Source of the DNA: an uncultured Gammaproteobacteria bacterium
Lineage (GTDB): Bacteria; Patescibacteriota; Patescibacteriia; UBA11705; JABHMO01
Assembly (NCBI GenBank): GCA_964590105.1
Contig: CAZPYM010000005.1
Coordinates: 19,015-83,014 of the forward strand
Length of the DNA stretch: 64,000 nt
Direction of reading: 5' to 3'
Positions 2,258 through 39,033 of this stretch are shown in pieces. The notes beneath the pieces are model-generated. The model was given only the letters and a program-made list of their open reading frames with translations, was not told the DNA's origin and made no database searches. Every line of letters begins with the position of its first letter. Positions within the stretch are counted from its first letter, which is position 1. The position numbers and the translations under genes were made by a program.

Positions 2258-3418
2258 ATGAAAAGCATAATACAGCAAATAAAAAAAACAAAGTGGTTCT
2301 TTGGCATCAGAAGAGAAGAGTCTTTGTTTTTTTATTCCGCCAAATATTATAATCGAGAAAAATTAACAAAAAGGCAATATGGGAGCAATTTTGTCGAGAG
2401 CGTTTTGTTTCCCAGGGAAAAGCATAATTTAATTAGGCTTTTTAATTTGAATCAATCTAAAATCTTTCATAGTGAATCAGAAAAAAAGATTTTAAAAGAC
2501 CCGACTGTTTTAGAGAAAAACATAAGCAAAGATTATACTTTGTGGAAGCGAATAGATGCGTTGAGTAATAAACTTAAAAATAGCATTAAACAAAATGATT
2601 ATAATTTTAGTTTGAAATTATTTAAAAAACTTATTGAAAAATACGGCGTTTACGGGACAGACTTTTTTGTTATATTTTCACAAGGCATGAAGCTTGAACA
2701 AAACAAAGACAACGTCAACAAATCTGCGTTAAGAAGTCTTGAGAAACATAACAAGTGGAGAAACACAGTTGCTTTTGAAGAAGAAAAGTTAGGCAAGGTC
2801 CTGTTTTGTTTTATAAAGTTTTTAACAAAAAAAACTGGTTTAAAAGTAGCGCCGCTTCAATTAATGAAGTATTTGTCAGTAAGGGAAGTAATTGGTTTTG
2901 CAGAAGGACGAATTAATAATAAACAAATTGAGAGTAAAGTAAAAGCCAGAAAGCAAAATGGTTGCGCGTTTTTTTATTTAAGAAACAAAAAATATCAAGG
3001 CATAGTGATTGACGATAAAAAAACAACAAAACAATTAACCAGTCATTTTTCAAAGTTGTTAAAAGTTCAAAAAGCACAGTCATTAAATGGCATTATTGGG
3101 CAGTCAGCGTTTAGTGCAAAGAATAAAGTTAAAGGCGAGATTATTGTTATAAAAGATAAAAATATTTTGCAAAAAATAAAACCAAATCTTGCCAATAAAA
3201 TTTTAGTTACTACGCAGACTTCGCCACATTTTCTTCCTTATCTTAAAAAAGTTAAAGCAATTATTACAGATGAGGGCGGCATTACTTCGCATGCGGCAAT
3301 TATTTCGCGAGAATTTAAAATTCCTTGCATCATTGGTACGCAAAATGCCACGCGGGTGTTGAAAAATAATGATATGGTGGAACTGGATTTGAAATGCGGC
3401 ACTATTAAAATATTATAG
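2258..3418 (+). CDS. Second PEP-utilising swivel-domain protein (paralog of 153..1244)
   Basis: The C-terminus ITDEGGITSHAAIISREFKIPCIIGT gives the same swivel motif. Its architecture parallels 153..1244. Confidence 0.75.
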   Translation: MKSIIQQIKKTKWFFGIRREESLFFYSAKYYNREKLTKRQYGSNFVESVLFPREKHNLIRLFNLNQSKIFHSESEKKILKDPTVLEKNISKDYTLWKRIDALSNKLKNSIKQNDYNFSLKLFKKLIEKYGVYGTDFFVIFSQGMKLEQNKDNVNKSALRSLEKHNKWRNTVAFEEEKLGKVLFCFIKFLTKKTGLKVAPLQLMKYLSVREVIGFAEGRINNKQIESKVKARKQNGCAFFYLRNKKYQGIVIDDKKTTKQLTSHFSKLLKVQKAQSLNGIIGQSAFSAKNKVKGEIIVIKDKNILQKIKPNLANKILVTTQTSPHFLPYLKKVKAIITDEGGITSHAAIISREFKIPCIIGTQNATRVLKNNDMVELDLKCGTIKIL

Positions 3419-3489
3419 AATTATTTCGATAATGTAAGGGCTCAAGATTTTGAACCTTTACAGCATTGGAGAGATTTTTTTGAAAAAAA

Positions 3490-3521
3490 ACAGCGGCTTA
3501 CCAAGGTGTGGTAAACCGCTG
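3490..3521. terminator. 12-bp-stem hairpin (1 mismatch) between convergent genes, flanked by A-run and T-run
   Basis: cagcggcttacc-aaggtgt-ggtaaaccgctg. Confidence 0.4.
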
Positions 3522-3538
3522 CATGTTGCGGTCGAGTT

Positions 3539-4159
3539 CTAGGCGAACTCTACGACACGGTAGCAACCGAGTCCGAGAGCATCGGTTGGCCGAGTGCCCG
3601 TGAGTCCCTCGACGATCAGGCGATCGTGAGGGCTGTGGTTGATGATGATGGTGAGCTCTTCGTTGCCCTCCCTCGTTGCCGTCAACACACGAGCAACCGG
3701 AGCCTTGAGCAGGGGGAGGTGAAGACGAAGCAAGGCTTCATCCCAGCCGAGCTCAGCGGCGGCTTTCTGGAAGGCCGTATCCTGGCGCAGTGAACGCCAG
3801 ATCGGGCCGTCTTCAGCCGAGGAATAGAAGTCCGTCCGGATTTCTTCCCTCGGGAAACAGAAGCCTCCTTGTCGTCCGGCTTCCTTCAGCCAGCCGGCGA
3901 ACCTGAGATCTTCCTGGATGACACGCAGGGTGTCAAGCCCGCGCAGGCTGCCGCTGACCAGGAAGGCGATCTTCAGCGGCGGATTCATGTCAAAGGGGTC
4001 GTAGCGGAACACCTCGCAAATGACACGGTAAACTTCAGCGGTCATTTTGCGCATTTCTTCGCGAACCCTTTTCTTTCCATTTTCGGTCAGCGGGCCGTCA
4101 TTGGCCATCTGTTTCTCGTAGTCGCCATGTCTGAAAATCACTGCAATTCGTTTTTCCAT
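3539..4159 (-). CDS. Histidine phosphatase superfamily (phosphoglycerate-mutase-like) protein
   Basis: N-terminal VIFRHGDY (RHG catalytic motif). The gene is about 60% GC in an AT-rich neighbourhood. Confidence 0.7.
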   Translation of the reverse strand: MEKRIAVIFRHGDYEKQMANDGPLTENGKKRVREEMRKMTAEVYRVICEVFRYDPFDMNPPLKIAFLVSGSLRGLDTLRVIQEDLRFAGWLKEAGRQGGFCFPREEIRTDFYSSAEDGPIWRSLRQDTAFQKAAAELGWDEALLRLHLPLLKAPVARVLTATREGNEELTIIINHSPHDRLIVEGLTGTRPTDALGLGCYRVVEFA

Positions 4160-8751: not shown

Positions 8752-11346
8752 ATGGTAATAGATAAACAGGCTAAAATCATTTTTGATGAAGAGACGGCAA
8801 TGCTGGACCAGCCACAGGGAGAAGGAAGAGAGGCGCTTGACCGCGAACAAGGGGCAGATGAAGCCGTTGAAAAAGCAGCAGAAAGAATGAGAGAACTATC
8901 ACGGCCGGAAACATGGGAAAGAGAAATACAAGAAAACCTGGAACAAGCAGGGCGAGACTTGGAATTTGCAAAAACTTCATTGCAGGCAAGAGTCGGCGTA
9001 GCGGAAGCAACCGGTGAATTGCTGGGTGCAAAAGTGTCAGCAGAAGAAATTGCCGAAGCGCAGGAAAAAATGCAGCAAGTGCGGCAGGCTTTGGAAAAAA
9101 TCAAAGCCATGGATCTGCGGCAGGTATCGCGAAGCGCGGCCGAAGGCATCAAGCAATTTGTGAAGGATAATATGCTAACCCTGAGCCCGCTTTTGATTGG
9201 CCCATTGGCCGCTCTGACCGGCGGTAGTGTTGGCATTGCTGTTCAGGCCTCACTTGAATTGACCGCCGGTATGTACGCGCTGGATAAAGTTTTGGATCGG
9301 TTGATGGATAGCGCTGAAGAAATTATTCCGCCGCAGTATTTCGTGGCTCTGGTGGCCGGCACGACCAATCTGGCAGAACTTGGCACCTCACAGGCCGCGG
9401 CTTTTGCCGGCGATTCGATATCAGAAGTGGCTTCTACGCCACTCGGGAGCAATCCGACTAACTTATATCTGACTGGCTTTGCTTTAATGTCGGCAATGAA
9501 AAAAAGGGCGGTGGCAGAAGGAATTATTCAGCCGGGAGAAAAATTGGGTTTATTAAATATTAAAAAAGTGCTTAAAAGTATAGACTGGAAAAGTGTAAAA
9601 GAACAAGGGGGATCTGCTTCTCTATTTGCGCTTGATGCTTTGATTTTCCAATTTTATGTGCGGCCGGAAATGAAAAAAGCTAATTTTATTCCATTTGCCG
9701 CCTGGTCGGCGATTAATGCGCCAATCATGTTTGAATATTTTCGCCGTACAACTTTTTCGCGCGAATCTCAGGTTGGAAATTATGCGGAAAGCATTGGCGA
9801 AGTCCAGTCAGCACAATTACAACAGGTGATGTTTGAAAATCAGGAGGGAGCCAGTTGCTTGTTTGAATTATTGGAATCGATCCAGTTGTACAAAGGGACA
9901 GAGGATAAAAAAGAAAGAAAAGAGCTGCTGGCAAAGTTGCGCTCATTGACCAAAAATTTGCAAACAAGAGTAGAAGGTGACGGTAATTTTCGTCGAGCAG
10001 TCCAGACTGCGACAGCCGGAGCTTCAATGGAAGATGTACAAAAATTTTTAAAAATCGCCGGTGTCGGAGAAAAGATGGATGTGCTACTTGGAGTTGACGA
10101 AGCGCAAATTAATGAGGCGACTGAGGCAGGATTGAGATTGGGTGAAAATCCCAAACATGCTGATGCCAGCCGCGCCTTTATCGGTATTATCAGCGTGTTG
10201 GAAAGTTATAAAACGGCCAAAACTAAGGAACAGAAACAAAAAGCAAAGGAAAAACTGGAACAAGCATATTATGAGTTAGATATAGAAATGCAGTGGGATG
10301 AGGAATTTGCCGTTGCAGTGGAGAATTCACTGGCCGATGAAAAACTTCAGGACGTGAAAAAAGCTATTGATTATTTGAAAACCGGCAAACAAAGCGATGA
10401 CAGCATATTTGAAAAAATTGATAATCTGGGTGTTTTGCAGATACGCAATTTGCAAAAATTTGCGCAGATTACTGAAGTTCGTTCGCGGGACAGGGTGGAA
10501 AAAATTCAGCCCTTTGTTGCGGTTATGTCGCAAATAGCTGCTTTTCGGCGAGCCAAGAATGAGTCAAGAAAAAAAGATTTACTTTATGATATTAAATTAA
10601 AGCTTGATCACCTAGAGCGGCGAGGCGATTTGGATGAAGATTTTGCCGTCGTTAAGGAGCAGTTATTAGCGGCTGAAGAAATGGCGGAAATTCGCGAGCT
10701 GATAAAATTAAGAGCAACCGGCAATGAATTGGAGGACAAATTAACGGCCGGAGATTTCAAAGATGCTTCCTTTGCTTTATCGCGGCATCAGGAAGTGCAC
10801 GCAGAGCTCGCGCCAAAGATCGGCGAGCTGGCGGAAGCAATTCAAACACTGCATGGTTTAAAAGGCGAAGAAAAAATTCCCGAGGTAGAAAGAACTTTAC
10901 GCAGTCAGATAAAGGATGTTTTGTCAGAGCTTGGGAAAAAAATGCAGGAAGCGGAAATAGTTGAACAGGAAATGGGGAAAATACTTGCGGTTGGCGGCGG
11001 CGAACCGGTAAAAAATTTAATTGAGATGAATTTGGCGCGCCAGAAAAAAATAAAAAATGTTGCAACAATTGCCGGCGGCATAGCGGCGCTTATGGGATTG
11101 TCGGTTGTTTTAGATAAAGGGGTGACGCACATGGCTGAATCAGTAGACTGGCTTGGTAAAGGAGCGGCCGGGTTTTTTATTATGTCGTTTTTAACCAGCG
11201 TAGGTGAATTTTTAACGACGAAAAAATTCTTCCAGCGTGGCGAGGACAGAGCGGCAGTAAAAAATATTGCTGACAGCAATGCCATTAATATCGGGCTGGC
11301 CAAATGCGCTGTTGCCTCGAGCGCCATTCGTAGCTTATTTGTTTAA
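8752..11346 (+). CDS. Large coiled-coil protein (864 aa) with C-terminal transmembrane helices, hypothetical
   Basis: Glu/Lys/Ala-rich heptad-like sequence. C-terminal hydrophobic segments IAGGIAALMGLSVVL and FFIMSFLTSVGEFL. GC is modestly elevated. Confidence 0.5.
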   Translation: MVIDKQAKIIFDEETAMLDQPQGEGREALDREQGADEAVEKAAERMRELSRPETWEREIQENLEQAGRDLEFAKTSLQARVGVAEATGELLGAKVSAEEIAEAQEKMQQVRQALEKIKAMDLRQVSRSAAEGIKQFVKDNMLTLSPLLIGPLAALTGGSVGIAVQASLELTAGMYALDKVLDRLMDSAEEIIPPQYFVALVAGTTNLAELGTSQAAAFAGDSISEVASTPLGSNPTNLYLTGFALMSAMKKRAVAEGIIQPGEKLGLLNIKKVLKSIDWKSVKEQGGSASLFALDALIFQFYVRPEMKKANFIPFAAWSAINAPIMFEYFRRTTFSRESQVGNYAESIGEVQSAQLQQVMFENQEGASCLFELLESIQLYKGTEDKKERKELLAKLRSLTKNLQTRVEGDGNFRRAVQTATAGASMEDVQKFLKIAGVGEKMDVLLGVDEAQINEATEAGLRLGENPKHADASRAFIGIISVLESYKTAKTKEQKQKAKEKLEQAYYELDIEMQWDEEFAVAVENSLADEKLQDVKKAIDYLKTGKQSDDSIFEKIDNLGVLQIRNLQKFAQITEVRSRDRVEKIQPFVAVMSQIAAFRRAKNESRKKDLLYDIKLKLDHLERRGDLDEDFAVVKEQLLAAEEMAEIRELIKLRATGNELEDKLTAGDFKDASFALSRHQEVHAELAPKIGELAEAIQTLHGLKGEEKIPEVERTLRSQIKDVLSELGKKMQEAEIVEQEMGKILAVGGGEPVKNLIEMNLARQKKIKNVATIAGGIAALMGLSVVLDKGVTHMAESVDWLGKGAAGFFIMSFLTSVGEFLTTKKFFQRGEDRAAVKNIADSNAINIGLAKCAVASSAIRSLFV

Positions 11347-11352
11347 AAAAAT

Positions 11353-11727
11353 ATGAATCAAAATAAAATATTGGGACAATTCATTGATTATAAAAATGAT
11401 GAACACACCAGGTTTGTTGAACTCCTGCAGGATTCGATAAGTTTTAGCGCCCGCGAAAAAGCGTTTATGATTATTGATTTTCACAGATATAATCAAATTC
11501 AAAAGCAAAAGTTGGTCAAGGCGTTGGAATCAGACCGCCGGCTGATCAAGGATTTGGAGCATGAATATCCGGAAGAATACGCGCAAAGAGAAATAAGGTC
11601 GAAAAAGGCCTGGATTTTTATGCTGGAAAGATTAGCTGAATATATTCAGGAGCAAAAAACTCGGCAAGCAAAAAAGTTTGATTATGAAGAATTGATGAAA
11701 CTGCGGCAGAAGCTGGATCAGGATTGA
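11353..11727 (+). CDS. Hypothetical protein
   Basis: ORF 7 nt downstream of the previous gene, so probably co-transcribed. Confidence 0.4.
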   Translation: MNQNKILGQFIDYKNDEHTRFVELLQDSISFSAREKAFMIIDFHRYNQIQKQKLVKALESDRRLIKDLEHEYPEEYAQREIRSKKAWIFMLERLAEYIQEQKTRQAKKFDYEELMKLRQKLDQD

Positions 11728-11854: not shown

Positions 11855-13084
11855 TTAATGGATTTTTCTGAGACTCCTCTGATAGTTGATGGCAAAGCGG
11901 TGCGCTTCGTCGCGTACTTGAATCAGAAGTTTTTTGTTTTGCAATATCCACGACTCAATTTTTTTATCAGTAATAAAGAATTCGTTTTTTTTGCGAGCCG
12001 GTCCCTTGGCAATGCCGATGATTGGAATGTTTAATTGAAAAGTTTTCAAAACAGCTTTTATCGCGCTGACTTGCGGCTTGCCGCCGTCAACCAGAAATAT
12101 GTCCGGCAATTGCCATTCTTTGTGATTTAAACGGCGTTCCAGCACTTCGGTAAGGCAGGTCACGTCGCTTTGGCCCTGAACAGTTTTAATTTTGAATTTT
12201 TTGTATTCAGATTTTATCGGTTCGCCATTGACAAAAGTTACCAGACTGCCGACTTTTCCGGTTGAACCAAGATTGGAAATATCATAGCCCTCGATTCGCG
12301 TAACGCGTAGCGTGGAACGCGTAGCGCCGGAATGATAAAAAAATGATTTATTAAGGAGCGCGGTATCGTGAATTTTTTTTAGGGCGAGGACTTGATCTCG
12401 CAGGCGAGAGGCTTGTTCAAAGTTTTCCTGCTTGGAAAATTTTTTCATTTGTTTTTCCAATCCTTTGATAACCTGTTTCTTTTTCCCTGATAAAAATAAT
12501 GATAAAGGCCGAATAATTTTTTGATTGTATTCTCTGGAAATAATTTCGCCGGTGCAGACTCCCTGACACTGTCCGAGCTGATAATAAAAGCAGGCTTTGC
12601 CGCTGTCTGGTTTGCAGGTCGAGAAATGAAAAAGTTTTCGCAAAAGTTTCAGTGTTTCTTTTGTGTTTAATCCCGGAAACGGCCCCCAGATTTTTGAATT
12701 ATTAATTATGAGTTTTGTATTAATTAGTTCGTGCTGGCGGATGCTTTTTAACTGCGGGAATTTGTCCTTCGTTAAATATAAATAATTCCAGCTTTTGTCA
12801 TCTTTGCCTAGAACATTATATTTTGGTTGATGTTTTTTTATGTAGTTTGCTTCCAAAATGATCGCTTCCAAAACCGAATCAGTTTTAATCCATTTGATAT
12901 TACTCACTTCGTGTATAAATGTCTCAATCGGCCGAGGCGATTTTTGTCCGGTGAAATAACTTTTGATTCTTGATTTTAAATTTGTAGCCTTGCCGACGTA
13001 AATCAAAACCTTTTTGGCATTATAAAAAATATATATACCCGGAGAGTTGGGTGCTGATTGGATTTTATGACTTATCGCGGACAT
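11855..13084 (-). CDS. uvrC: Excinuclease ABC subunit C (short form: GIY-YIG plus UvrBC-interaction plus RNaseH-like endonuclease, no C-terminal HhH)
   Basis: N-terminal GIY-YIG (PGIYIFYN...LIYVGKATNLKSRIKSYF). It is 409 aa, shorter than the canonical roughly 600 aa. Confidence 0.8.
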   Translation of the reverse strand: MSAISHKIQSAPNSPGIYIFYNAKKVLIYVGKATNLKSRIKSYFTGQKSPRPIETFIHEVSNIKWIKTDSVLEAIILEANYIKKHQPKYNVLGKDDKSWNYLYLTKDKFPQLKSIRQHELINTKLIINNSKIWGPFPGLNTKETLKLLRKLFHFSTCKPDSGKACFYYQLGQCQGVCTGEIISREYNQKIIRPLSLFLSGKKKQVIKGLEKQMKKFSKQENFEQASRLRDQVLALKKIHDTALLNKSFFYHSGATRSTLRVTRIEGYDISNLGSTGKVGSLVTFVNGEPIKSEYKKFKIKTVQGQSDVTCLTEVLERRLNHKEWQLPDIFLVDGGKPQVSAIKAVLKTFQLNIPIIGIAKGPARKKNEFFITDKKIESWILQNKKLLIQVRDEAHRFAINYQRSLRKIH

Positions 13085-13264: not shown

Positions 13265-13291
13265 TTGACATTTTAATAGTTTTGATATAAT
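13265..13291 (+). promoter_or_regulatory. Sigma70-like promoter for the JAB-E1-Ubl operon
   Basis: TTGACA (13265..13270), a 15-nt spacer with TG, then TATAAT (13286..13291). It lies about 95 nt upstream of the ATG at 13383. Confidence 0.45.
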
Positions 13292-13382
13292 ATAAATTGT
13301 TCTTTGGACTTTGAAAATATAATATAGTTATTATTTGTTTGGGATTTTTTATCGGGCAAGTATAATCGCAAGGAGGATATCA

Positions 13383-14204
13383 ATGAAAGGAAAAAAATTC
13401 CCAGAGCAGCCTGTCGTCAGAACAAGTCATCGGCACAGTGGGCCGGTGAATGTCGGGCCAAGGGTGTACTGGAGCGTGCGCCAGAAATTCACGCCGCATG
13501 AGTTTGGACCGCAAATCAGCCTTTCCGGTAGCATGCCGGAAGTCTTGATTGTGCCGGAAGCCTTGGCAAAAATGTATGCCTATATCTGCGCCGCCGGCAG
13601 TGATGAAATCAGCTGGCTCGGTACGGTGGAAGATCGCGGCAACAAATATATCATCAAAGAGATATTTCTTGTTGAACAGACTGTCAACGGCGTGGAAACG
13701 GAAATGACCGCAGAGGGAATGGCGGAGCTGTCAGAAGAATTCATGGCTCGTCCGGATGGAGAAACTGTGTGGAAAGAAACTCGCTTTTGGGGACATTTTC
13801 ATCCGTTTTCCGATGCCGGACCGTCCGCTCATGATGAGCGCCAATTGCACGAATTTCTTAATTCCGGGCATGAGTTTTTCCTGCGCGGCATTTGCAGCGC
13901 AAATGGAATAATCCAGTTTACGTTATACTTGATTAACCGCGGAATCATCATTACCGATGTTCCGTGGTCGTTGAACATTGAGGATAACGATGAATTGCGG
14001 CAGCGTACTCTCGCTGAAGTTAAAGAAAAGGTGCGCAAGCGCATTGTTGAGACCGTCAGAGTGATGGGTGGCGGTCACTCCGCTATTGGTAATCCGCCAT
14101 ATGGCCGGACATGTACCAGAAGAGAAGTTGATAATGCGATTGAAAGCTTTAACCAGGAGGGGAGGAATCATGGGCCGAGCGACGACGACCAGCTTGAAGA
14201 ATAA
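13383..14204 (+). CDS. JAMM/JAB (MPN+) metalloprotease domain protein
   Basis: Exact JAMM motif HFHPFSDAGPSAHD (HxHx7Sx2D) with an upstream conserved Glu (DEISWLGTVE). RBS AAGGAGG sits 6 nt upstream of the ATG. Confidence 0.75.
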   Translation: MKGKKFPEQPVVRTSHRHSGPVNVGPRVYWSVRQKFTPHEFGPQISLSGSMPEVLIVPEALAKMYAYICAAGSDEISWLGTVEDRGNKYIIKEIFLVEQTVNGVETEMTAEGMAELSEEFMARPDGETVWKETRFWGHFHPFSDAGPSAHDERQLHEFLNSGHEFFLRGICSANGIIQFTLYLINRGIIITDVPWSLNIEDNDELRQRTLAEVKEKVRKRIVETVRVMGGGHSAIGNPPYGRTCTRREVDNAIESFNQEGRNHGPSDDDQLEE

Positions 14205-14916
14205 TAAAAAGCCGAAGGCACGGGTTCAGCCGCCGGTGGAAGCCGAACTGGATCTTGTTCGCCAGCTTTCAATATTTGATCCCACAAAATTCGCCGAAGA
14301 GCGTATTGACGTGATTGGCGTGGGCGCGGTCGGATCGCATGTGGCTTGGTTTTTGGCAAAAACAGGATTCAAAAACATTCATGTCTGGGACGACGACATT
14401 GTCGCCTCGCATAATGTTCCGAATCAGCAGTTTTTCCTTGACCAAGTCGGTCAAACAAAGGTTGCCGCGCTCGCTGAAAATATCATGCGCGCCACGGGCG
14501 TCATGGTTGCAATGCATCCGGTTAAATTCATCGGACAAGAAGGCCTGGGCAAACATGTTTTCCTGGGTGTTGACAGTATGGAAGCGCGCAAAAGCATCTT
14601 TGACTTGTCGATTAGAATGAAGCTCGGCATTGAAACAATGTTTGAGACTCGAATTGGGTCGGACATTTGCCGCATCTACCTTATTTCACCCATCAGCCCA
14701 GCGCAGATCAGAGGCTGGGAAGAAACACTGTATTTGGATAGCGAAGCGGAAGTTTCTCTTTGCGGTACTGTGCCGTCAATCATTACCACAAGTTCTCTGG
14801 CGGCCGCCGCTGCTGTATGGCAGTTCATCAAATGGCTGTCCAGTCGCGACGTGGAAAATGAGCTGGTCATTGGTTTTCGTCCGGCGTTCAATGTCTTGAC
14901 AAGAAAGTTCATTTGA
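14170..14916 (+). CDS. E1-like adenylyltransferase (ThiF/MoeB/HesA family)
   Basis: Rossmann motif IDVIGVGAVGSHVAWFLAKTG...HVWDDDIV. C-terminal SLCGTVPSIITTSSLAAAAAV aligns with the MoeB Cys-containing loop. RBS GGAGG is present. It overlaps the JAB gene by 35 nt. Confidence 0.75.
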   Translation: MGRATTTSLKNNKKPKARVQPPVEAELDLVRQLSIFDPTKFAEERIDVIGVGAVGSHVAWFLAKTGFKNIHVWDDDIVASHNVPNQQFFLDQVGQTKVAALAENIMRATGVMVAMHPVKFIGQEGLGKHVFLGVDSMEARKSIFDLSIRMKLGIETMFETRIGSDICRIYLISPISPAQIRGWEETLYLDSEAEVSLCGTVPSIITTSSLAAAAAVWQFIKWLSSRDVENELVIGFRPAFNVLTRKFI

Positions 14917-14975: not shown

Positions 14976-15188
14976 ATGGGAACTGCGCGCGTTGGGAAGT
15001 TGCCTGGACCGCCGTTCAAAGAGGTCGAATTCCGCGACGGAGACTCCGCGGCGGACGTCCTTAGGAATGCCGGTCTTTCAACCGACGGCGGCTATGAGTG
15101 CCGCGTGAATGGTTCGTCTGTTCCGCTGAACACGCGGATCAGACCGGGCGACCAGGTTCTGCTGGTCAAGAAAGTAAAGGGTCAGTAA
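14976..15188 (+). CDS. ThiS/MoaD-like beta-grasp ubiquitin-like protein with a non-canonical Gly-Gln C-terminus
   Basis: 70 aa. CRVNGSSVPLNTRIRPGDQVLLVKKVKGQ aligns with the ThiS C-terminus VNQQIV...DGDQILLFQVIAGG. RBS AGGAGG sits 6 nt upstream. Confidence 0.6.
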   Translation: MGTARVGKLPGPPFKEVEFRDGDSAADVLRNAGLSTDGGYECRVNGSSVPLNTRIRPGDQVLLVKKVKGQ

Positions 15189-15720: not shown

Positions 15721-16953
15721 CTATTCGGCTTCCTCGAATTCCTCGGCTACGCCGACAAGGCAGGTACCTCCTCCCTGTCTCGCGCCGCTCGAGCCGTCGT
15801 TGCGGCCGGAGAGCAGTTCATCCCACTTGATCTGCTGGCCCAACTGGAACAGCTGGGACAGGAACTTGTACTCGTTCGGTTCGTCCTTGCAGTTCGGCAG
15901 GAGCAGGATGGCAAGAGTGAATCTCGCGAGACTCTGTTCCAGGCGAACATCGTTCGCCGTTGCCGCCACGCCGAGGATCCGGAGCATCTCGTCCCTGGTC
16001 GTGGCCCCGATGGCCTGCGGCAGGTCCTTGTTGTCCAGGAGTTCCTTGATCTTCTTGGCTTCCGTGGCCATGGCGACTGCCACGGGCAGGCGCATGCCGC
16101 TGAAGAGCGTGTTGATGGCATCGTTGACCGCTTCGGCCGCGTCGTAGAGCATGCCGGTGTCGGGTGGGGTGACCAGGCCTTCCGGCATGGCCGTTCCGTC
16201 CGTCCGCTGGCTCAAGGCCACGGCCATGGCGAGCATCTGGTTTTCTCCCATGTCCGCGAGCCAGGCCTTCTTCCAGTCACGCATGGCGCGGTGGAAGTCG
16301 CGCAAGGCGACCCAGAGCACCATCTTGACGCGGTGGATCAGGTCGGTCTTCCGCCGCTTGGTCACGAATGCCGCTTCGATGTCCATGGCTTCGAGCACTT
16401 CCGCGTAGCGCTTCCTGCGAACCAGCTTGAGCAGGGAGTAGAACTCCTTGCCGCACGGTTCGCTGAGCTCGTCGGCTCGCTGAAGCATGAGGTCGACCAG
16501 CTTCTCCGGCACTTCGAAGAGTCCGAACTGGTCGGCGAGACCGGCGCGGTTGGCGAAGAGCACGGATACGGGCTGTTCGATCTTCAGCACGCCGCCCGCC
16601 TTGATGGTCTTCATGAAGGAATCGTCTTCCTTGACTTCCGGCAGAGCGTCGAAAGCGCCGACCAGGGCAACGGCCGTGCCGGCCGCTGTCGCGACCTGAG
16701 TACGGCCGCGCAGAACGGACGTGAACTGGCGCAGGAGCGCCACCGGAAGACCGAGACCGTCGTCGCAGAGCACCTTGCGCAGGTCGCCGAACGGCGTCAG
16801 ATTCTCGTCTCCCAGCATGTTCAGCGCGCCTTCGCTCGGCTCGCCGATGAGCGGCTTCAGCGCCGCGTCCAGTTGTTCCACCTTTTTGCCGGCCGCGCTG
16901 GCAAGCGCGCCCACTCGGTCATTCCATTTCTGCTTCCAAAGTTCTGTTTCCAT
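15721..16953 (-). CDS. Hypothetical alpha-helical protein (410 aa), extreme GC (about 62%)
   Basis: Long ORF with RBS AGGAGG 6 nt upstream of ATG (METELWKQKW). It has its own promoter and terminator. Its codon usage is foreign to the host. Confidence 0.55.
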   Translation of the reverse strand: METELWKQKWNDRVGALASAAGKKVEQLDAALKPLIGEPSEGALNMLGDENLTPFGDLRKVLCDDGLGLPVALLRQFTSVLRGRTQVATAAGTAVALVGAFDALPEVKEDDSFMKTIKAGGVLKIEQPVSVLFANRAGLADQFGLFEVPEKLVDLMLQRADELSEPCGKEFYSLLKLVRRKRYAEVLEAMDIEAAFVTKRRKTDLIHRVKMVLWVALRDFHRAMRDWKKAWLADMGENQMLAMAVALSQRTDGTAMPEGLVTPPDTGMLYDAAEAVNDAINTLFSGMRLPVAVAMATEAKKIKELLDNKDLPQAIGATTRDEMLRILGVAATANDVRLEQSLARFTLAILLLPNCKDEPNEYKFLSQLFQLGQQIKWDELLSGRNDGSSGARQGGGTCLVGVAEEFEEAE

Positions 16954-17133: not shown

Positions 17134-17161
17134 TTGACAAAATTATTAATTGTGTTAATAT
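17134..17161 (+). promoter_or_regulatory. Sigma70-like promoter with extended -10 for the 600-aa gene
   Basis: TTGACA (17134..17139), 16-nt spacer, TGnTAATAT (17153..17161). Confidence 0.45.
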
Positions 17162-17197: not shown

Positions 17198-19000
17198 ATG
17201 GTCAGCGAAAATCAAGCGTATTTTTCCGACAGCCTGACGCAGGAGGCGATTCAGGCGTTGAAAACAGCCGGGCTGGTTATGGAGGAAAGGTTTGGCATTG
17301 CAGACGGCGTGACCGGCGTGCTGTTCGGCAAAGTCGGCGCGAATGAAGTTTTGATGAGCGTCGGCCTTGAAATTGTTTCAACGAAAAACAGTCTCTATGA
17401 TGGCATCAATTTCGTGGTGTTAAAAAAAGTTGGGCAAAAAACTGATCAGAATCAGCCAGGTCAGGTGCAGATTGAATTTGATAAAAACACGAACTGGGGT
17501 GATACGACAGGCTGGTTGAAACAGGCGGCGATGGATTATCTGGCGCCGATTTTAGCGCCGGAAATACAAAAGATAGTGTTTTATCATCATCACGATGACT
17601 TTGTGGAATTGTTTCGATATCAAAACCAGGATACGATATTTAGGGTTTTTTGGGGCCGTATTGCTGACGGCACAGAAGGAGTTGTGAAGATTGTGGAATG
17701 CGTATCGCTGGTTGGAAACAATATGTTTTTGTCCGGCGACAATGTGCGTTTGAGCGGATATAATGAAATGACGGAAAGAGTGCGCCGGGAGTTGAAATTA
17801 GCGACAGACCGGATGAAAAAGCCGGATTTTCAGCAATATGTTGAACTGCGGAAAAACGTTGTTGCGCATGGGCGTTTTTCATCCTCTGATAATTTTATTG
17901 ATGCAATCATTCAGAAATTGCTGAAAAAGTCATCGCTCATCAAGCGGGTGGAAATGCATTATGAAAAAACTGTTCAACCGGGAAAAGAGATGAAGGACAC
18001 TTTAGTCGTTTGTCTGTTCGCCGGATTGGGACAGAATCACGCTGCGTCCGTAAAGGTGCCGCAAAAAATTTTTGGCCGGGCAGTTTCATGCTTAAAGCAT
18101 TGCGGCCATATGTCATCTGAGATGGAAGAAGGCATCGTGTTCATGGATGGCGACTACGCGGTGGCTGAATTCATCGGCAACACCCTGTATGTGTTTCATC
18201 ATCTTGGTTGTCAGGGTGACAAACATGAAACGGAAATTTTCTGCCATCTGCTGGGACTGGTGGAGGGAGAGTTGACTAAGCCCGAAGAGCAGAAAGCGGT
18301 CGAGCGCGATGCAAGGCGCAGGGCGATTTTGGAAAGATCCCGAGAACAATATGCGGACATGTGCCGCGAGCGTTATAGAATAGAGGTGGAAAGCCTGCAA
18401 CGACTGGTAGGACAAATGAGTGAGCAGGCAGTTGAGTTTCGGAAAAAGTACATTGAGGCGGTGCGCGAGATGGAGTTTTCTGAGCAAAAATTGGTAGTTC
18501 TGTCGCAATCCGGAAAGCCGATTTTGGAAAAATACCGGGCGGAGTTCGATCAGATGACCGCATGGCCAAACGTAAGAATGGTTCAGACTGATAACCAAGG
18601 TATTTTGACGGTAATGACCGATGTTTTGTTCGCGACCGATCCGCGGAGCCAGAAAGTTCACGAAATAGGCGAATTCAAAATCGTCATCAATGTGAAAAAC
18701 GGTGACATTCGCTGGTACAATCAGACGCGTTTGGTTGTCGGCTATGATGGGATACAATTCAACGCGCCTCATGTAAGGGAAAACGGCGCTGCTTGCCTTG
18801 GTAACGCGTCCGGCCCGATCGCCGAGATGGTGGCGCGCCATGAATTCTCGGCGCTGGTGGCGCTGGCTATCCAGTTCGTTGAAACAGTAAATGTTGATCC
18901 GGGCGAGAATTGGGGACCGTTCATTGACAAATGGCCGACGGTGGGCGGACAGCCTGAAAAGGAGAAAAGAAAGCCGCCTAAGAAACGGACAAAGAAATAA
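17198..19000 (+). CDS. Hypothetical 600-aa protein; C-terminal ~130 aa show a UBC/E2-like signature (speculative)
   Basis: RBS GGGAGGTGG precedes ATG (MVSENQ). Near the C-terminus GYDGIQFNAPHVRENGAACLGN resembles the UBC HPN-loop plus catalytic Cys (compare FHPNINSNGSICLDIL). A helix ALVALAIQFV follows. The N-terminal region is His/Cys-rich. Confidence 0.55.
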   Translation: MVSENQAYFSDSLTQEAIQALKTAGLVMEERFGIADGVTGVLFGKVGANEVLMSVGLEIVSTKNSLYDGINFVVLKKVGQKTDQNQPGQVQIEFDKNTNWGDTTGWLKQAAMDYLAPILAPEIQKIVFYHHHDDFVELFRYQNQDTIFRVFWGRIADGTEGVVKIVECVSLVGNNMFLSGDNVRLSGYNEMTERVRRELKLATDRMKKPDFQQYVELRKNVVAHGRFSSSDNFIDAIIQKLLKKSSLIKRVEMHYEKTVQPGKEMKDTLVVCLFAGLGQNHAASVKVPQKIFGRAVSCLKHCGHMSSEMEEGIVFMDGDYAVAEFIGNTLYVFHHLGCQGDKHETEIFCHLLGLVEGELTKPEEQKAVERDARRRAILERSREQYADMCRERYRIEVESLQRLVGQMSEQAVEFRKKYIEAVREMEFSEQKLVVLSQSGKPILEKYRAEFDQMTAWPNVRMVQTDNQGILTVMTDVLFATDPRSQKVHEIGEFKIVINVKNGDIRWYNQTRLVVGYDGIQFNAPHVRENGAACLGNASGPIAEMVARHEFSALVALAIQFVETVNVDPGENWGPFIDKWPTVGGQPEKEKRKPPKKRTKK

Positions 19001-19005
19001 GACAA

Positions 19006-19036
19006 AAGCCGACTCGCAACGAGCCGGCTTTTTTAT
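19006..19036 (+). terminator. Rho-independent terminator after the 600-aa gene
   Basis: agccgactcg-caac-gagccggct followed by TTTTTT. Confidence 0.6.
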
Positions 19037-19072: not shown

Positions 19073-21655
19073 TTATTTTATAACGCTTTTTAAATATTTT
19101 CCAGTCCAGCTATGCGCGTATCTGGCAATATCTTCCGGCGTGCCGACTTTCACGATTTCGCCGCCGCCGGTGCCGCCTTCTGGGCCGAGGTCAATGATCC
19201 AGTCAGCGCATTTTATCACGTCCAGATTGTGTTCAATTATCATGACAGTATTGCCTTGCGAAACCAGACGTTGAATTACTTCAAGTAATTTTCTAACATC
19301 ATCATAATGCAAGCCGACTGTTGGCTCATCCATCAGATACAGAGTTTTGGTTGTACTGCGCTTGGCCAGTTCGCGGCTCAATTTGATTCTCTGCGCTTCG
19401 CCACCGGAAAGAGTGGTGGCTGATTGGCCGAGAGTCAGATAATCCAGACCGACTTCATTCAGCATTTTAAATTTGTCGTAAACAAATGGCACGTCTCTAA
19501 AAAAATCTTTGGCCTGCTCAATGGTCATATTCAATACATCGGAAATGTTTTTTCCTTTGTAATGAACTTGCAGAGTTTCTTTATTAAATCTTTTGCCCTT
19601 GCAAATATCGCAGGTGACCTCGACGCTTGGTAGGAAATGCATTTCAATCTGCAAACGACCCCGACCCTCGCAATGTTCACAGCGGCCACCGGGACGATTG
19701 AAACTAAATCTGCCGACTTTGTAGCCGCGAATTCTAGCTTCTTGAGTGGAAGCAAAAATCTCACGGATATAATCAAATGCTTTGGTATAGGTCGCCGGAT
19801 TTGAGCGCGGAGTGCGGCCGATCGGGGATTGATCGATTTTTACTATTTTGTCTATATAATCTGTGCCGCTGATTGATTTGTGTTTGCCAACCCATTTATT
19901 CATTCTGAATTTTTTATTTTGAATCGCCCGATAGAGAATGTCGTGCATAAGGGTCGATTTTCCGGAGCCGGAAACGCCGGTCAGGCAAACCAGTCGGCGT
20001 AAAGGAATTTCTACAGTAATGTTTTTTAAATTATGTTCAGCCGCGCCGACTATTTTGATTATTGGCGTATTTTTGTCAACCTTGCGCCTTTGCGCTGGTA
20101 GGGGAATCATTAGTTCATTGCGTAAATATTTGCCGGTTAGGGAATCTTTTGCTGAGCCCTGAAGCGCGCAATCAAGCTCGGTTTTTGCCTGAACAATTTT
20201 GGTGTTCAAAATGTTATTCAACGGGCCGTTAAATACAATTTGTCCGCCATGAATTCCGGCGCTCGGTCCGATATCAACCAGCCAGTCACTGGCAAGAATC
20301 GTATTTTCATCATGCTCCACAATAATAATTGTGTTGCCGATATCGCAAAGGTCGCGTAGGGTGGAAACCAGCTGGTCATTGTCTTTTTGATGAAGTCCGA
20401 TTGTCGGCTCGTCCAGCACATAGAGCGCGCCGACCAGTTTGGTGCCAACCTGTGAAGCCAGTCTTATTCTTTGCGCCTCGCCGCCGGACATGGTGCCGGC
20501 GCGGCGATTTAGCGTCAGATAATGAAGGCCAACATTTAGCATGAATTCCAGGCGGTTTTTTATTTCATTCAGAACCACGCCGCTGATTTCCAGTTGTTTT
20601 GTGGTCAGCTTTTTATCCAGTTTAGAAAAAAAGTCAAAAGCCTCGGCAATGGTAAAGTCTGAAATCTGCCAAATATTTTTTTCGGCAATTTTGACGCTTA
20701 GCGCATTTTTATTCAGGCGTTTTCCTTCACACTTCGGACAGGGTTCATTACTGAATAATTCTTTTATCCCAAGTCCGGTGCAATAGTCGCAGTAGCCATA
20801 AGGGCTATTGAAACTGAAAAGCCGCGGTTCTATTTCCGGAAAGCTGTAGCCGTCATTAACGCAGGAGTATTCGGTGCTGAATATTTTTTCAGTTTTGTCG
20901 GGATAAATAATAGTGCAAAGCCCATTGGAAAGTTCGATCGCGTTTTCAACCGCTTCGGCAATTCTTTGCAAAACTGTGGGCGTATTATCAATCGCCGAAG
21001 CATTGAGCATGGTGATTTTGTCAACAACAACTTCAATGGTATGTTTGTCGTTTTTTGCCAGCAAAACGCGGTTTTTTAGTTGTTTAAATTTTCCGTCGAG
21101 ACGCGCTTCGGCAAAGCCATTATTATAAATATCATACAGGAGCTGGTGATATTCGCCCTTGCGTCCGCGGACGATTGGCGAGAGAATTTGCATTTCAGCT
21201 GGAGACAAAGTTTTTTCATTTTTAAATTTATTAATAATCCGGTCGACTATTTCATCTGAAGTTGTTTTTTCCATGATCGCTTCGCAAAGCGGGCAGTGCG
21301 GTTGGCCGATTTTGGCAAAAAGTACTCTTAAATAATCATATACTTCAGTAATAGTGGCGACGGTTGAGCGCGGATTGGCGCTGTGCGCTTTTTGATCAAT
21401 CGAAATGGCGGGGGACAGGCCGGTTATTTCGTCCACATTTGGTTTTTGCAGGCCGCCGAGAAATTGTCTGGCATATGACGACAAGCTTTCAATATATCTT
21501 CTCTGGCCTTCGGCAAAAATCGTATCAAAAGCCAGGCTGGATTTTCCTGATCCGGAAATGCCGGTAAACACGATCATTTTGTTGCGCGGAATTTCCAGAT
21601 TAATGTTTTTTAAATTATGTTCGCGCGCGCCTTTGATTGTGATTTTATTTTCCAT
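19073..21655 (-). CDS. uvrA: Excinuclease ABC subunit A
   Basis: [18 protein letters not shown]...[14 protein letters not shown]. Two ABC ATPase modules and Zn-finger Cys pairs are present. The start is refined to the MENK Met. Confidence 0.9.
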
Positions 21656-21783
21656 AAGTGTTACGGATGTACAGATTTGCAGGTACGGATTATGCAGATT
21701 CATTGGAGGAAATAGATAACAGGGGTTCACTTGAAATTATACGAAGCCATCGCTAATTCAGCCGCAATCTGTACTATCTGTAA

Positions 21784-22791: not shown

Positions 22792-23014
22792 AATTAAAAT
22801 TTGCCCCGTTCCTGCTCGTACTAGGGGGTAGTGAATAGATTATTTGTCTGCAGTATACGATTATCAGAGTGTTTTGTCAATTTGAGAAAGTCGGCGGTTT
22901 TATGTTTTCACTAAATTTACTAAAATAAACCCTAGAGAGGTTGACAAAGTGTTTTTTTATTGATATATTAATTTGTCAGTGCTCTTTGAACGGCGAATAA
23001 AAGGAGGTGATAAG

Positions 23015-23590
23015 ATGGAATGGTTGATTATTTGGACGCCTGTGATTGTCGGAGGAATTGTTTTCATCTATTTTGCCGGCAAAATGGTTGGACTGTATTT
23101 GAACAAAAATCAGAAAAGAAACAGGCGAGTTTTTCTTGTTTATTTGTTTAGCTTGCTAGCGGTTGCCATGATTACGGCAATCTATACCGTTAGCGTTTTG
23201 ACAGAAAAAGACGAGAAAGAAGATCAGCCGGCAAAAATTTCTGTTTGCGAACAGTTTTTCCGCGTGGGTGATATTCAGGTTCAGCTGATGCGGAATAGTG
23301 TGCTTTTGGAGAACGATGGGCCAGAACGCATGGGCCGGACATACTATCAGTTTGAAACGCGGGAAATGACGAACGGAATGTACGGCGATGCCAAAGTCTG
23401 GAAACACAATACTGTGTTTGCCGGATTGAATCCCGGAGAATATTATCACTATCTTCAGGGTGCGCGCATGGCTGAAGACATTGAGTTTGTGCGCATCCGG
23501 CCGGAAGGCGGGAGCAAGTGGTATGAGATTGACGTCTCGAAGTGCGAAATGAAATCTTTTGCTGTTCAGCCGGGGAAGCCGCCCTGGTAG
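23015..23590 (+). CDS. Hypothetical membrane protein
   Basis: RBS AGGAGGTG precedes ATG (MEWLIIW). Two N-terminal TM helices. Confidence 0.45.
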   Translation: MEWLIIWTPVIVGGIVFIYFAGKMVGLYLNKNQKRNRRVFLVYLFSLLAVAMITAIYTVSVLTEKDEKEDQPAKISVCEQFFRVGDIQVQLMRNSVLLENDGPERMGRTYYQFETREMTNGMYGDAKVWKHNTVFAGLNPGEYYHYLQGARMAEDIEFVRIRPEGGSKWYEIDVSKCEMKSFAVQPGKPPW

Positions 23591-26146: not shown

Positions 26147-26515
26147 ATGGAAAAACTCCAGCGAGTGATGGTTAACTATGCTGATTGGAGCCAATATGGT
26201 TGCCCATATTGCCGGCGTCAAGAGTCATTGGCGGGTATTTCCAGAGGAACTGTGTATTCGGTGGTGAGATGTTCAGGATGCAGAAAACTTTTTGCCATCC
26301 TTTTTTCGCCGGATTACATGAAGGTGCAGCACTTTTCCGGCCAAGGAACAATTGATCTTTTGGTCCGTGAAGATGACGGCGATAAAGTTCGCGTATTCAA
26401 TTATGAAGATTTGGTTCAGGCGGCAGAGAGGTTCCAGTCGATCGTTGCGCAATTCCGTGACCGTGAATTTGTTCTTCAAAAGCATCCGCAACCTGAAAAG
26501 GTTAAGCGTCGCTAA
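26147..26515 (+). CDS. Hypothetical protein with CxxC...CxxC zinc-ribbon
   Basis: CPYCRR ... CSGCRK. RBS AGGAGGTG is present. Confidence 0.45.
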   Translation: MEKLQRVMVNYADWSQYGCPYCRRQESLAGISRGTVYSVVRCSGCRKLFAILFSPDYMKVQHFSGQGTIDLLVREDDGDKVRVFNYEDLVQAAERFQSIVAQFRDREFVLQKHPQPEKVKRR

Positions 26516-37373: not shown

Positions 37374-38018
37374 ATGTTTTGGTTTTTCAAAAAAAACAAG
37401 ATTGAAGAAAAAGAAGTAGAAAAAGAAAAAGTTACCAAAAAAAGCGTCGGTAAAAAGGCTAGCTCAAAAATGACTAATGCCCAAATTTTGCAAGCTTTGA
37501 ATCAAATGCAAAAAGAACTTGAGCGATTGAAACTGGCAGTGGGCGGTGGCGCGGTAGCGGTACCTGAAAGCGATGCCGACAAGATTGTGGAACAAGCTTT
37601 GGGCGAAATCCAGAGTCGGACTGAGGCTGTGCAGAAAAGCGGCAGTGAAAAAATTATTGAAGGAGTTTTTGATGGTCAGGGCATGGTGGGCGCGGATGGC
37701 GCGCGTTATGACGTGCCGGCAAATTATGCTTCCAAGTCAAAACTGGTTGAGGGCGACATTCTGAAGCTGACGATAAATAACATGGGAGCTTTTGTCTATA
37801 AACAAATAAAACCGATTGAACGTGAACGGATTGTTGGAATATTGGATCAGGACCCGCAAAATCTACAGTTTTACGCTACGGCCGGCGGAAAAAAATGGAA
37901 GCTGATTACCGCCAGCGTTACATATTTCAAGGGCGAATCCGGCGACGAAGTCGTTTTTCTGATACCGGCAGAAGGCGGGAGCAAATGGGCGGCAGTGGAG
38001 AATATTGTTAAAAAGTAG
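37374..38018 (+). CDS. Hypothetical protein with Lys/Glu-rich N-terminus
   Basis: ORF 47 nt downstream of the ATPase. Confidence 0.4.
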   Translation: MFWFFKKNKIEEKEVEKEKVTKKSVGKKASSKMTNAQILQALNQMQKELERLKLAVGGGAVAVPESDADKIVEQALGEIQSRTEAVQKSGSEKIIEGVFDGQGMVGADGARYDVPANYASKSKLVEGDILKLTINNMGAFVYKQIKPIERERIVGILDQDPQNLQFYATAGGKKWKLITASVTYFKGESGDEVVFLIPAEGGSKWAAVENIVKK

Positions 38019-38154
38019 AGAGGATGAATAATCCCTCGATTCGTCGTTCCTCTTTGCTCGGGACGACAAAGAGGAGGAAGAAACAGGATAAGCGATTCAC
38101 GCTACGCGATTAAAAATAAAAAGCGCTCCGTCATGGCGGGGCGCTTTGTAGTGG

Positions 38155-39033
38155 TTAAGCCAGCAAAAGCTGGTATTTTTCCAGCTGATATTCGGGAACT
38201 GCTTTCAGATCAGAGTGAATGGCGAAGCCGCTAAGGGCCCGGCCGCAACCGCATTGGTCTGAAACGATCACTTTGGCAAGGCCGGTGATGATCGGCGCTA
38301 TGAGCGGCTTGAAAGGTTCAAGTCCGGCAACCACTTCATCCGCGTCAACGCCTTTTTCGTCCATTCTCCAGGAATCATAGTCTGCCGGCAGGCAAATGAC
38401 TGCGTAGCACAATTGCGCTTCGCGCGCCAGTCTGGCTTCCGGCATGGCGGTCATGCCGACCACGTAAGCCTGGAGCGAATTTTTGAAGAAAAGCGATTCT
38501 GCTCTGGTTGAATAATTCGGCCCCTCAATGACTACATAGGTGCCATTGGCTTGTAGCGCGGTGGGGTTTCTTGAAGTAGACAATAGTCTAATCAAACAGG
38601 CGTGGAAAGCTGGACAGAACGGATCAGCCAGACTGACATGCGCCACCACATCATTGTCGCCTTGAAAAAAAGTGCGCGGACGAAGGCCGCGGGTAAAGTC
38701 AAACAACTGCGTTGGAATAACCAGGGTTTCTCCCGGCACGATATGTTCCTGCAGACTGCCCACGGCGCTGATAGACAGCAGGTGAGTGACGCCGCAGTGC
38801 TTCATTGCCCAGACGTTGGCCCGGTAGTTGATACTCGACGGACTGTAGACATGTCCGGCCCCATGCCGATTCAGGATGAAGGCAAAGTAGCCATTATCAA
38901 GCTGGACTTGCTTGATAGTGTCAGATGGCTGGCCAAATGGGGTTTCAATCTCGAATTCATCAATCACGGGGAAGGGTAAATGAACAAGAGCTGTCCCTCC
39001 GAAGATTCCTAGAATCGGCGATTTTGCGGTCAT
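38155..39033 (-). CDS. mtnP: S-methyl-5'-thioadenosine phosphorylase / purine nucleoside phosphorylase family (PNP_UDP_1)
   Basis: MTAKSPILGIFGGT...HGAGH...VTHLLSISAVGSL. RBS GGAGG 5 nt upstream. GC is higher than in the flanks. Confidence 0.65.
   Translation of the reverse strand: MTAKSPILGIFGGTALVHLPFPVIDEFEIETPFGQPSDTIKQVQLDNGYFAFILNRHGAGHVYSPSSINYRANVWAMKHCGVTHLLSISAVGSLQEHIVPGETLVIPTQLFDFTRGLRPRTFFQGDNDVVAHVSLADPFCPAFHACLIRLLSTSRNPTALQANGTYVVIEGPNYSTRAESLFFKNSLQAYVVGMTAMPEARLAREAQLCYAVICLPADYDSWRMDEKGVDADEVVAGLEPFKPLIAPIITGLAKVIVSDQCGCGRALSGFAIHSDLKAVPEYQLEKYQLLLA

Follow-up and report, generated by a model that had tools for sequence, protein, structure and literature searches.

A probable E2-type conjugating enzyme in a four-gene ubiquitin-like cassette of uncultured bacteria and huge phages

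The ubiquitination-like pathways of bacteria (CBASS Cap2, Bil, and Bub) were only recently shown to conjugate proteins, and they hold a key place in the question of how the eukaryotic ubiquitin-activating (E1) and ubiquitin-conjugating (E2) enzymes arose. In the type II cyclic-oligonucleotide-based antiphage signaling system (CBASS), Cap2 is an E2-E1 fusion and the "ubiquitin-like protein" (Ubl) is the C-terminus of the CD-NTase. Bil (BilABCD, "bacterial ISG15-like") is operon class 6d of Iyer, Burroughs, and Aravind (2006). Its deubiquitinase removes the residue after the C-terminal Gly of BilA (PMC10557695), and its E2, BilB, has the active site C-E-H-H, in which the key His lies downstream of the Cys and there is no upstream His (PMC10557695, PMC1779556). 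The E1 of this system, BilD, combines an inactive and an active adenylation domain with a mobile CYS domain, and its cited catalytic and Zn-binding residues extend to about position 500 (PMC10557695). Bub operons (class 6e) encode Ubl-E2 and JAB-E1 fusions or E2-E1 fusions, together with the DUF6527 protease BubE (PMC11601603). Here, we describe a 600-amino-acid (aa) protein with a C-terminal E2-like domain, encoded near genes for a JAB peptidase, an E1, and a Ubl in a 64,000-nucleotide stretch of DNA (referred to as the window) from an uncultured bacterium of the GTDB phylum Patescibacteriota (assembly GCA_964590105.1, contig CAZPYM010000005.1, positions 19,015 to 83,014).

We consider it likely that this protein acts as the E2-type conjugating enzyme in a Ubl cassette of four genes, which encode the E2-like protein, a JAB/JAMM metallopeptidase (JAB), a small ThiF-type E1, and a ThiS-like Ubl. 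Its C-terminal domain is probably a very divergent, catalytic E2. The protein is the translation of an open reading frame (ORF) at 17198-19000 on the + strand, stop codon included, and its start codon is the same in independent gene calls of other assemblies. A first-pass annotation of the window, made from the sequence alone, had proposed that the C-terminus carries a UBC/E2-like domain, the missing E2 of the island, fused to a single His/Cys-rich N-terminal domain of about 450 aa. The ORF was as described, with residues 491-561 matching the quoted residues exactly, and the codon named for the candidate Cys is indeed TGC. The E2-like assignment agrees with the conserved His and Cys, the hhalign register, and the linkage to the cassette described below. 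The N-terminal part was misjudged and instead comprises an alpha/beta domain, a poorly conserved stretch, a module, and a coiled coil. The parts of the protein and the residues of interest are as follows.

17198..17482, + strand: N-terminal alpha/beta domain, approximately residues 1-95, common to most family members
17882..18289, + strand: 130-aa family module, one copy, residues 229-364 (jackhmmer domain E = 1.7e-24)
18290..18562, + strand: coiled-coil linker of ~90 aa, approximately residues 365-455, charged heptad-like sequence
18563..18952, + strand: UBC/E2-like domain, residues 456-585, C-terminal, after the coiled coil
18770..18772, + strand: codon CAT of His525, which aligns with the Asn of the canonical HPN
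18794..18796, + strand: codon TGC of Cys533, the candidate catalytic Cys, aligned by hhalign to Cys85 of UBE2D2
18953..18997, + strand: Lys/Arg/Pro-rich C-terminal tail, residues 586-600, QPEKEKRKPPKKRTKK, not conserved in the family

When 1.84 billion cluster representatives (clusters at 50% identity) were scanned exhaustively with HMMER, 1,625 related representatives were recovered at E ≤ 1e-3, 123 of them at E ≤ 1e-30, with the match confined to approximately residues 280-585 of the query. The 600-aa protein contains the motif NAPHVRENGAACLGN, and the DNA within 18761-18820 reads AAC GCG CCT CAT GTA AGG GAA AAC GGC GCT GCT TGC CTT GGT AAC. When the C-terminal domains of the 150 best homologues were aligned (overall identity 35-55%), His525 was kept in 149 sequences, Cys533, Pro524, Gly530, and Gly535 were each kept in 148, and Gly491 and Asn508 were kept in all 150. 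Judged from these alignments, conservation of the motif is far beyond chance, and the Cys and His singled out in the first-pass annotation hold their positions among homologues. Position 548, downstream of Cys533, is Tyr in 98 of the 150 sequences and His in 13; a downstream His is not conserved.

The size of the family was not apparent from a word-indexed protein search, which found nothing with the full protein and 12 short fragments with the domain alignment. That search probably missed the 1,625-cluster family because words from the coiled coil saturated its candidate list. An empty result of this kind is, by itself, poor ground for calling a protein an orphan.

We modeled residues 456-585 with AlphaFold2 on a 33-sequence alignment (predicted local distance difference test [pLDDT], 94.7; predicted TM score, 0.87). 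The model runs from a beta-meander through a short flap that carries His525 and Cys533 to a long, broken helix and then a short tail that contains an invariant W-P; the beta-meander, active-site flap, and long crossover helix typical of UBC folds are all present. On this model, the domain probably has a UBC-like alpha/beta fold, but one that is a distant match to known E2s. The UBC fold expected for residues ~470-580 was therefore recovered by structure prediction, though Foldseek gave no match in the PDB.

Alignment with hhalign against three human E2s paired Pro524 with Pro76, His525 with Asn77, Gly530 with Gly82, and Cys533 with Cys85. It also paired the EIGxF strand with the GGxF strand, and the helix and N-x-D turn with LLSIxxLLxxPNxxDP. 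The spacing first given for the motif, PHV-x4-G-x2-C-L, needs correction: the actual spacing is PHV-x3-G-x2-C-L, and the register that matches UBC is P-H-x4-G-x2-C-L, so that Pro524 and His525 fall on the Pro and the Asn of HPN, respectively. At the HPN position, the window protein has A-P-H and the family consensus is [AH]-P-H, with the Pro in register; the structural His of HPN is usually Ala in the family, and the Asn is replaced by the near-invariant His. The motif in huge-phage copies is H-P-H-[VI]-x3-G-x2-C-L-G, and A-P-N occurs in a few copies. These HPH and APN variants lend support to the predicted UBC register of the motif.

The E1, Ubl, and deubiquitinase that the annotation had placed in the same island were identified as a ThiF-type E1, a ThiS-like Ubl, and a JAMM peptidase.

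13383..14204, + strand: JAB/JAMM metallopeptidase with the motif E...HFH-x7-S-x2-D (PADLOC JAB, E = 0.007)
14170..14916, + strand: single-domain ThiF-type E1 of 248 aa (Pfam ThiF, E = 3.6e-13; NCBIfam ThiF, E = 1.1e-17)
14976..15188, + strand: ThiS-like Ubl of 70 aa, ending ...LLVKKVKG-Q (NCBIfam ThiS, E = 4e-5)

The JAMM motif is intact in the window and conserved in the JAB homologues of all loci; a PDB sequence search found no close solved relative of the JAB. Homologues of the E1 are 219-290 aa long, typically ~230-250 aa, with one Rossmann adenylation domain, and Pfam ThiF covers one domain. They share a GxGxxGS loop, the motifs D-x-D...HN...NQ and DxM..R, and an invariant Cys in S-x-C-G/T, which is Cys198 in the window (codon 14761-14763). 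For the E1, too, no close solved relative was found: the nearest PDB sequences are TcdA, MccB, and MoeB (E ~1e-4), over the Rossmann segment only, and PADLOC matches within the cassette E1 cover this same segment only. Homologues of the Ubl have the C-terminal sequence LLVKKIKG and, beyond it, another one to three residues (Q, N, A, NC, or GCL). Tandem Ubl precursors with two beta-grasp repeats are encoded in loci L004 (12296-13108), L007 (10054-10668), and L008 (5032-5457), and the predicted products of these two-repeat genes resemble a polyubiquitin-style precursor. In L004 and L007, repeat 1 ends in KIKGN, and repeat 2 has a different C-terminus followed by a coiled-coil-like extension.

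The same four genes travel together elsewhere. A scan of one genome per species, with an 8-sequence alignment as the query, identified seven loci: three in Saccharibacteria, one in Paceibacterota, one in Thermoanaerobaculia, and two on near-identical contigs of metagenome-assembled genomes. In all seven, the homologue is directly followed by JAB and E1 on the same strand. A Ubl gene is present in six, after E1 or, in one case, before JAB; none was found in L005. The JAB and E1 matches in these loci had E-values between 1e-37 and 1e-61, and the Ubl matches between 1e-10 and 1e-13. Two IMG/VR contigs of ~190 kb also carry the cassette, one of them twice and the other with two tandem E2-like genes. 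A scan of metagenomes added 23 further loci, with the same gene order in nearly all that had enough flank; L021 and L022 have little downstream sequence, in L019, the start of a Ubl gene is all that follows the E2-like gene, and in L030 the partners were not found in the 6 kb downstream of the E2-like gene. Of the 31 loci with enough flank, nearly all place the homologue in one operon with members of these JAB, small-E1, and Ubl families. The E2-like, JAB, E1, and Ubl genes are the only ones common to the loci compared; they usually occur in this order (L028 has its E2-like genes after E1) and often overlap by a few bases. With four genes in ~3.5 kb, the cassette is compact. It ranges across candidate phyla radiation (CPR) and other uncultured bacteria and huge-phage contigs, and it is often duplicated.

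The two IMG/VR contigs, L008 (IMGVR_UViG_3300014204_000114, 188 kb) and L009 (IMGVR_UViG_3300027896_000010, 193 kb), are both huge-phage-sized. L008 has its two cassettes ~7 kb apart, and their JABs have long C-terminal extensions (369-397 aa). Five loci (L009, L023, L025, L027, and L028) contain tandem E2-like paralogues. One tandem copy in L027 (1-945, 952-1869) lacks both the His and the Cys, and one in L023 (2319-4187, 4212-5048) has His replaced by Asn and the altered motif CCTDE. Loss of the Cys was seen only in second copies adjoining an intact copy. By analogy with UEV proteins, these degenerate copies may serve as inactive partners to an active E2.

Several observations weigh against the assignment of the protein as an E2. 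The Pfam profiles UQ_con and Prok-E2_A to E were not matched by 33 C-terminal domains, even at E ≤ 10, and the window protein and 10 full-length homologues likewise left the Pfam E2 families unmatched at this threshold. A PDB search with the domain profile gave chance-level matches at most, and the best Foldseek match of the domain model in the PDB had an E-value of 0.68. The UBC helices alpha3 and alpha4 are missing from the model, and helix alpha1 would fall in the end of the coiled coil, beyond the modeled segment. The hhalign probability for the E2 alignment is 12.5%, and the placement of Cys533 relative to the E2 active site comes from sequence alignment and secondary-structure order only. 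The E1 has no recognizable E2-docking (UFD) or CYS domain. In the window itself, an unrelated gene lies between the JAB-E1-Ubl genes and the E2-like gene, and the latter has a promoter-like site to itself.

UBC-related folds can be non-catalytic, as in UEV/Mms2, AKTIP, and the RWD kinetochore proteins, and archaeal SAMP/UbaA systems operate without an E2. The C-terminal domain could similarly be a UBC/UEV/RWD-type scaffold or adaptor that binds Ubl or E1 non-covalently, with any conjugation proceeding directly from E1. APH in place of the canonical HPN, the unmatched Pfam E2 profiles, and the tandem paralogues without the Cys all favor such a role. Yet a binding role would make it hard to explain why the Cys and His persist in 148 to 149 of 150 diverse homologues at 35-55% identity; moreover, the Cys is lost only in second copies beside an intact copy, and Cys533 aligns with the catalytic Cys of E2s. 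We therefore regard a non-catalytic domain as unlikely. Somewhat less plausible still is that the 600-aa protein is the substrate, or a structural coiled-coil partner from a phage or cell surface, which is modified with Ubl by the E1 and processed by the JAB. Its conserved C-terminal domain would then act as a docking site and the Cys and His as a metal or structural site. The long coiled coil, the repeated modules, and the occurrence in huge phages would suit this, as would the lack of any other conserved neighbor gene as a possible target, and lambda tail assembly pairs a Ubl (TAPI) with a JAB (TAPK) and has no E2 (PMC1779556). However, one Cys and one His are insufficient for a metal site and the domain has no further invariant Cys or His, the fold and motif register match E2 enzymes, and PHROGs virion-protein profiles went unmatched beyond one weak, unassigned match.

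The partners also recall a sulfur-carrier pathway of the ThiS/MoaD-ThiF-JAB type (compare CysO-Mec+, siderophore-linked), in which the 600-aa protein would be a sulfurtransferase or a persulfide carrier via Cys533. The best-scoring models for the Ubl and E1 are those of ThiS and ThiF, and the E1 has the size of ThiF/MoeB and its nearest PDB relatives among TcdA, MccB, and MoeB. Those scores, however, fall well below the NCBIfam cut-offs (E1, 64 bits versus 159 for ThiF; Ubl, 24 bits versus 80 for ThiS), and no conserved gene for sulfur assimilation, thiamine, molybdopterin, or cysteine synthesis lies beside the cassette. Tandem poly-Ubl precursors and capped Gly termini are typical of conjugation systems, the partner has a UBC-like rather than a rhodanese or SirA-like fold, and the cassette is found in phage contigs too. 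Of the three alternatives, we find this one the least credible and very improbable.

If the 600-aa protein is an E2, the cassette can be assigned a plausible course of action. The JAB would trim the residue or residues after the C-terminal Gly of the Ubl (in the window, the final Gln) and, elsewhere, would split the tandem Ubl precursors. The small E1, presumably a homodimer like ThiF/MoeB, would adenylate the Gly and may hold the Ubl on its invariant Cys198. The Ubl would then pass as a thioester to Cys533, helped by His525 in place of the Asn of HPN, and the E2 would hand it to a target without a separate ubiquitin ligase (E3). The coiled coil could dimerize the protein and so pair two E2s to suit the dimeric E1, and the N-terminal domain and 130-aa module may choose the target. 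Because the cassette is placed as an island in uncultured (largely CPR) genomes, occurs in huge phages, is duplicated, and varies in its modules, we infer that its role is most likely in phage-host conflict.

Across the family, the layout is an alpha/beta domain of ~95 aa, one to five modules of 130 aa, a coiled coil of ~90 aa, and the UBC-like domain. Residues 10-80 of the window protein are modeled by AlphaFold2 with a pLDDT of ~90, and a YF...L...G motif in this N-terminal domain aligns with homologues. Its fold matches are weak and of the HPF/PSRP1 type, and it has one weak PHROGs match (phrog_16408, E = 4.9e-4), to which no function is assigned. Residues 100-200 are poorly conserved and poorly modeled. 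The 130-aa module is present in one to five copies in 132 of 151 sequences (the 150 best homologues and the window protein, counted with jackhmmer), with the consensus VPH...F.I.IWS.P....P...WG..V.C.D....PSG.G..I.D..G..VAE..GN.LYIHHD..H.G...E..IF..ILE. In the window protein, it is modeled with a pLDDT of ~90, and its best fold matches are GATase1/ThuA-like (Z ≤ 7). We propose that the module is a substrate- or partner-binding unit. The AlphaFold2 model of the N-terminal part ends at residue 372, with helices at 342-360 and 363-371. In the consensus alignment, the length of the coiled coil is kept across the family, and its only PDB sequence matches are SNARE helices at E ~1. At the far end of the UBC-like domain, alignment columns 585-590 are largely gaps or variable residues.

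In the window, the island lies between uvrC (11855-13084, - strand) and uvrA (19073-21730, - strand), and the order of its genes is JAB, E1, Ubl, an opposite-strand gene, and the E2-like gene. An assembly chimera was ruled out as the source of this arrangement, which is the same in 14 contigs from several samples. The remaining features of the island are as follows.

13265..13293, + strand: promoter-like site upstream of JAB-E1-Ubl (consensus match only)
15721..16953, - strand: intervening GC-rich gene, 410 aa as called (the longest ORF extends to 16971, 416 aa)
17134..17161, + strand: promoter-like site TTGACA-16-TAATAT with a TG extension, 37 nt before the E2-like start (consensus match only)
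19004..19032, no strand: 13-bp GC-rich hairpin in the sequence between the stop codons of the E2-like gene and the convergent uvrA, likely a bidirectional terminator

The intervening gene has a GC content of 63% and a third-codon-position GC content (GC3) of 0.83, against a GC3 of ~0.53 in its neighbors and a GC content of ~40-50% in the region. A separate promoter-like site (17069-17041) and a terminator-like hairpin (15702-15675) accompany the gene, which has no domain matches. We considered a structured RNA for this GC-rich 1.3-kb stretch and rejected it: Rfam returned nothing, and the GC content by codon position (0.67/0.40/0.83) is that of a protein gene. Homologues with 39-62% identity are found elsewhere, away from the cassette. 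Two of them, in L033 and on a JGI contig, lie just downstream of an adenylosuccinate-synthetase-like (PurA/PurZ-type) gene. Since the gene is not in any related locus and has its homologues elsewhere, including near the PurA-like gene, we take it to be an insertion rather than a fifth component of the cassette.

Just upstream of the island, between truB and uvrC, two further genes may form a second accessory or defense-like insertion. One (8752-11346, + strand) encodes an 864-aa coiled-coil-rich protein with a C-terminal membrane segment and a weak Na_Ca_ex match; the other (11353-11727, + strand) encodes a 124-aa protein with weak PADLOC matches to PDC-M30A (E = 6e-5) and BstA (E = 2e-3). Patches of raised GC content (0.46-0.52 versus a background of ~0.40) at 3001-4000, 38001-39000, and 54001-58000 suggest further foreign or unusual segments in this genome. 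Two small ORFs without a family match are interspersed among uvrA, an rlmN-like gene, and uvrB: 22973-23590 (+ strand; 205 aa), with N-terminal membrane helices, and 26147-26515 (+ strand; 122 aa), with CxxC...CxxC zinc-ribbon-like motifs.

The cassette is met in no domain database or paper that we searched. Neither the 600-aa protein nor its family as a whole had a match in Pfam, NCBIfam, or PADLOC or a PDB sequence match, the best PDB score for the protein being E ~1; tblastn against GenBank phages and PLSDB plasmids gave no match; and our searches of the open-access literature returned no account of such a family in CPR bacteria or huge phages. We tentatively suggest that it could be a previously undescribed Ubl-conjugation lineage in CPR bacteria and huge phages, with a ThiF-sized E1 and an E3-independent E2 that carries target-binding modules, although we would put this at somewhat below an even chance. 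On the same reading, the P-H/N...G-x2-C-L register would be closer to eukaryotic UBC than that of Bil, and the tandem active/inactive pairs would recall Ubc13/UEV. To our knowledge, the defense and counter-defense biology of CPR bacteria and huge phages is almost unexplored. If the proposal is true, the family would represent a further branch in the early evolution of E2 enzymes, as well as a new conflict system in organisms with almost no characterized immune systems. The family is useful for four features: a UBC-like domain whose active-site register is close to canonical, an E1 of the smallest kind, Ubl precursors that are capped or arranged in tandem, and modules of variable copy number on the E2. 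The family also offers annotation pipelines a new E2 profile.

Compared with eukaryotic UBC E2s (UBE2S, UBE2D2/3, and UBE2N), the domain has 9-16% identity, no Pfam UQ_con match, and APH, or HPH in some phage copies, for HPN. In the model, it has two extra N-terminal strands, and the short W-P tail replaces alpha3/alpha4; the domain is also fused behind a coiled coil. The E3-independent multidomain E2s UBE2O and BIRC6 show no homology to the protein outside the UBC-like domain, and any likeness to them would be one of analogy. Membership in sulfur-carrier systems was rejected on the sub-cut-off scores and the lack of linked cofactor or sulfur genes. Unlike type II CBASS Cap2/Cap3, the cassette has separate E2 and E1 proteins and a beta-grasp Ubl, with no conserved CD-NTase or effector nearby. 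It is like Bub in being a bacterial E1, E2, and Ubl conjugation system, and both include multi-domain Ubls; in contrast to Bub, the 31 loci contain none of its fusions and no fifth conserved gene.

The closest parallel is Bil, in which Ubl, E2, JAB/JAMM, and E1 are likewise encoded by separate genes in one operon. As in BilA, the Ubl carries one or more residues past its C-terminal Gly, and their removal by the JAB is predicted here. The proposed chemistry probably matches that of Bil as well, with adenylation, relay of a thioester, and conjugation to lysine that needs no dedicated E3. In the candidate E2, the conserved His precedes the Cys by 8 residues and sits in the HPN register, and, unlike in BilB, no His is conserved downstream; whereas BilB stands alone, the E2 domain here comes after an N-terminal domain, one to five modules, and a coiled coil. 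The E1 consists of one domain of ~230-250 aa, unlike BilD, and the hosts differ as well, being CPR and other uncultured bacteria and huge phages. The first-pass annotation had called the architecture foreign to Bil, Bub, and CBASS, and the active-site motif, the E1 size, and the fusion to modules and a coiled coil bear this out. We accordingly reject membership in all three on active-site motif, E1 size, and architecture, while the gene content of the cassette is that of Bil.

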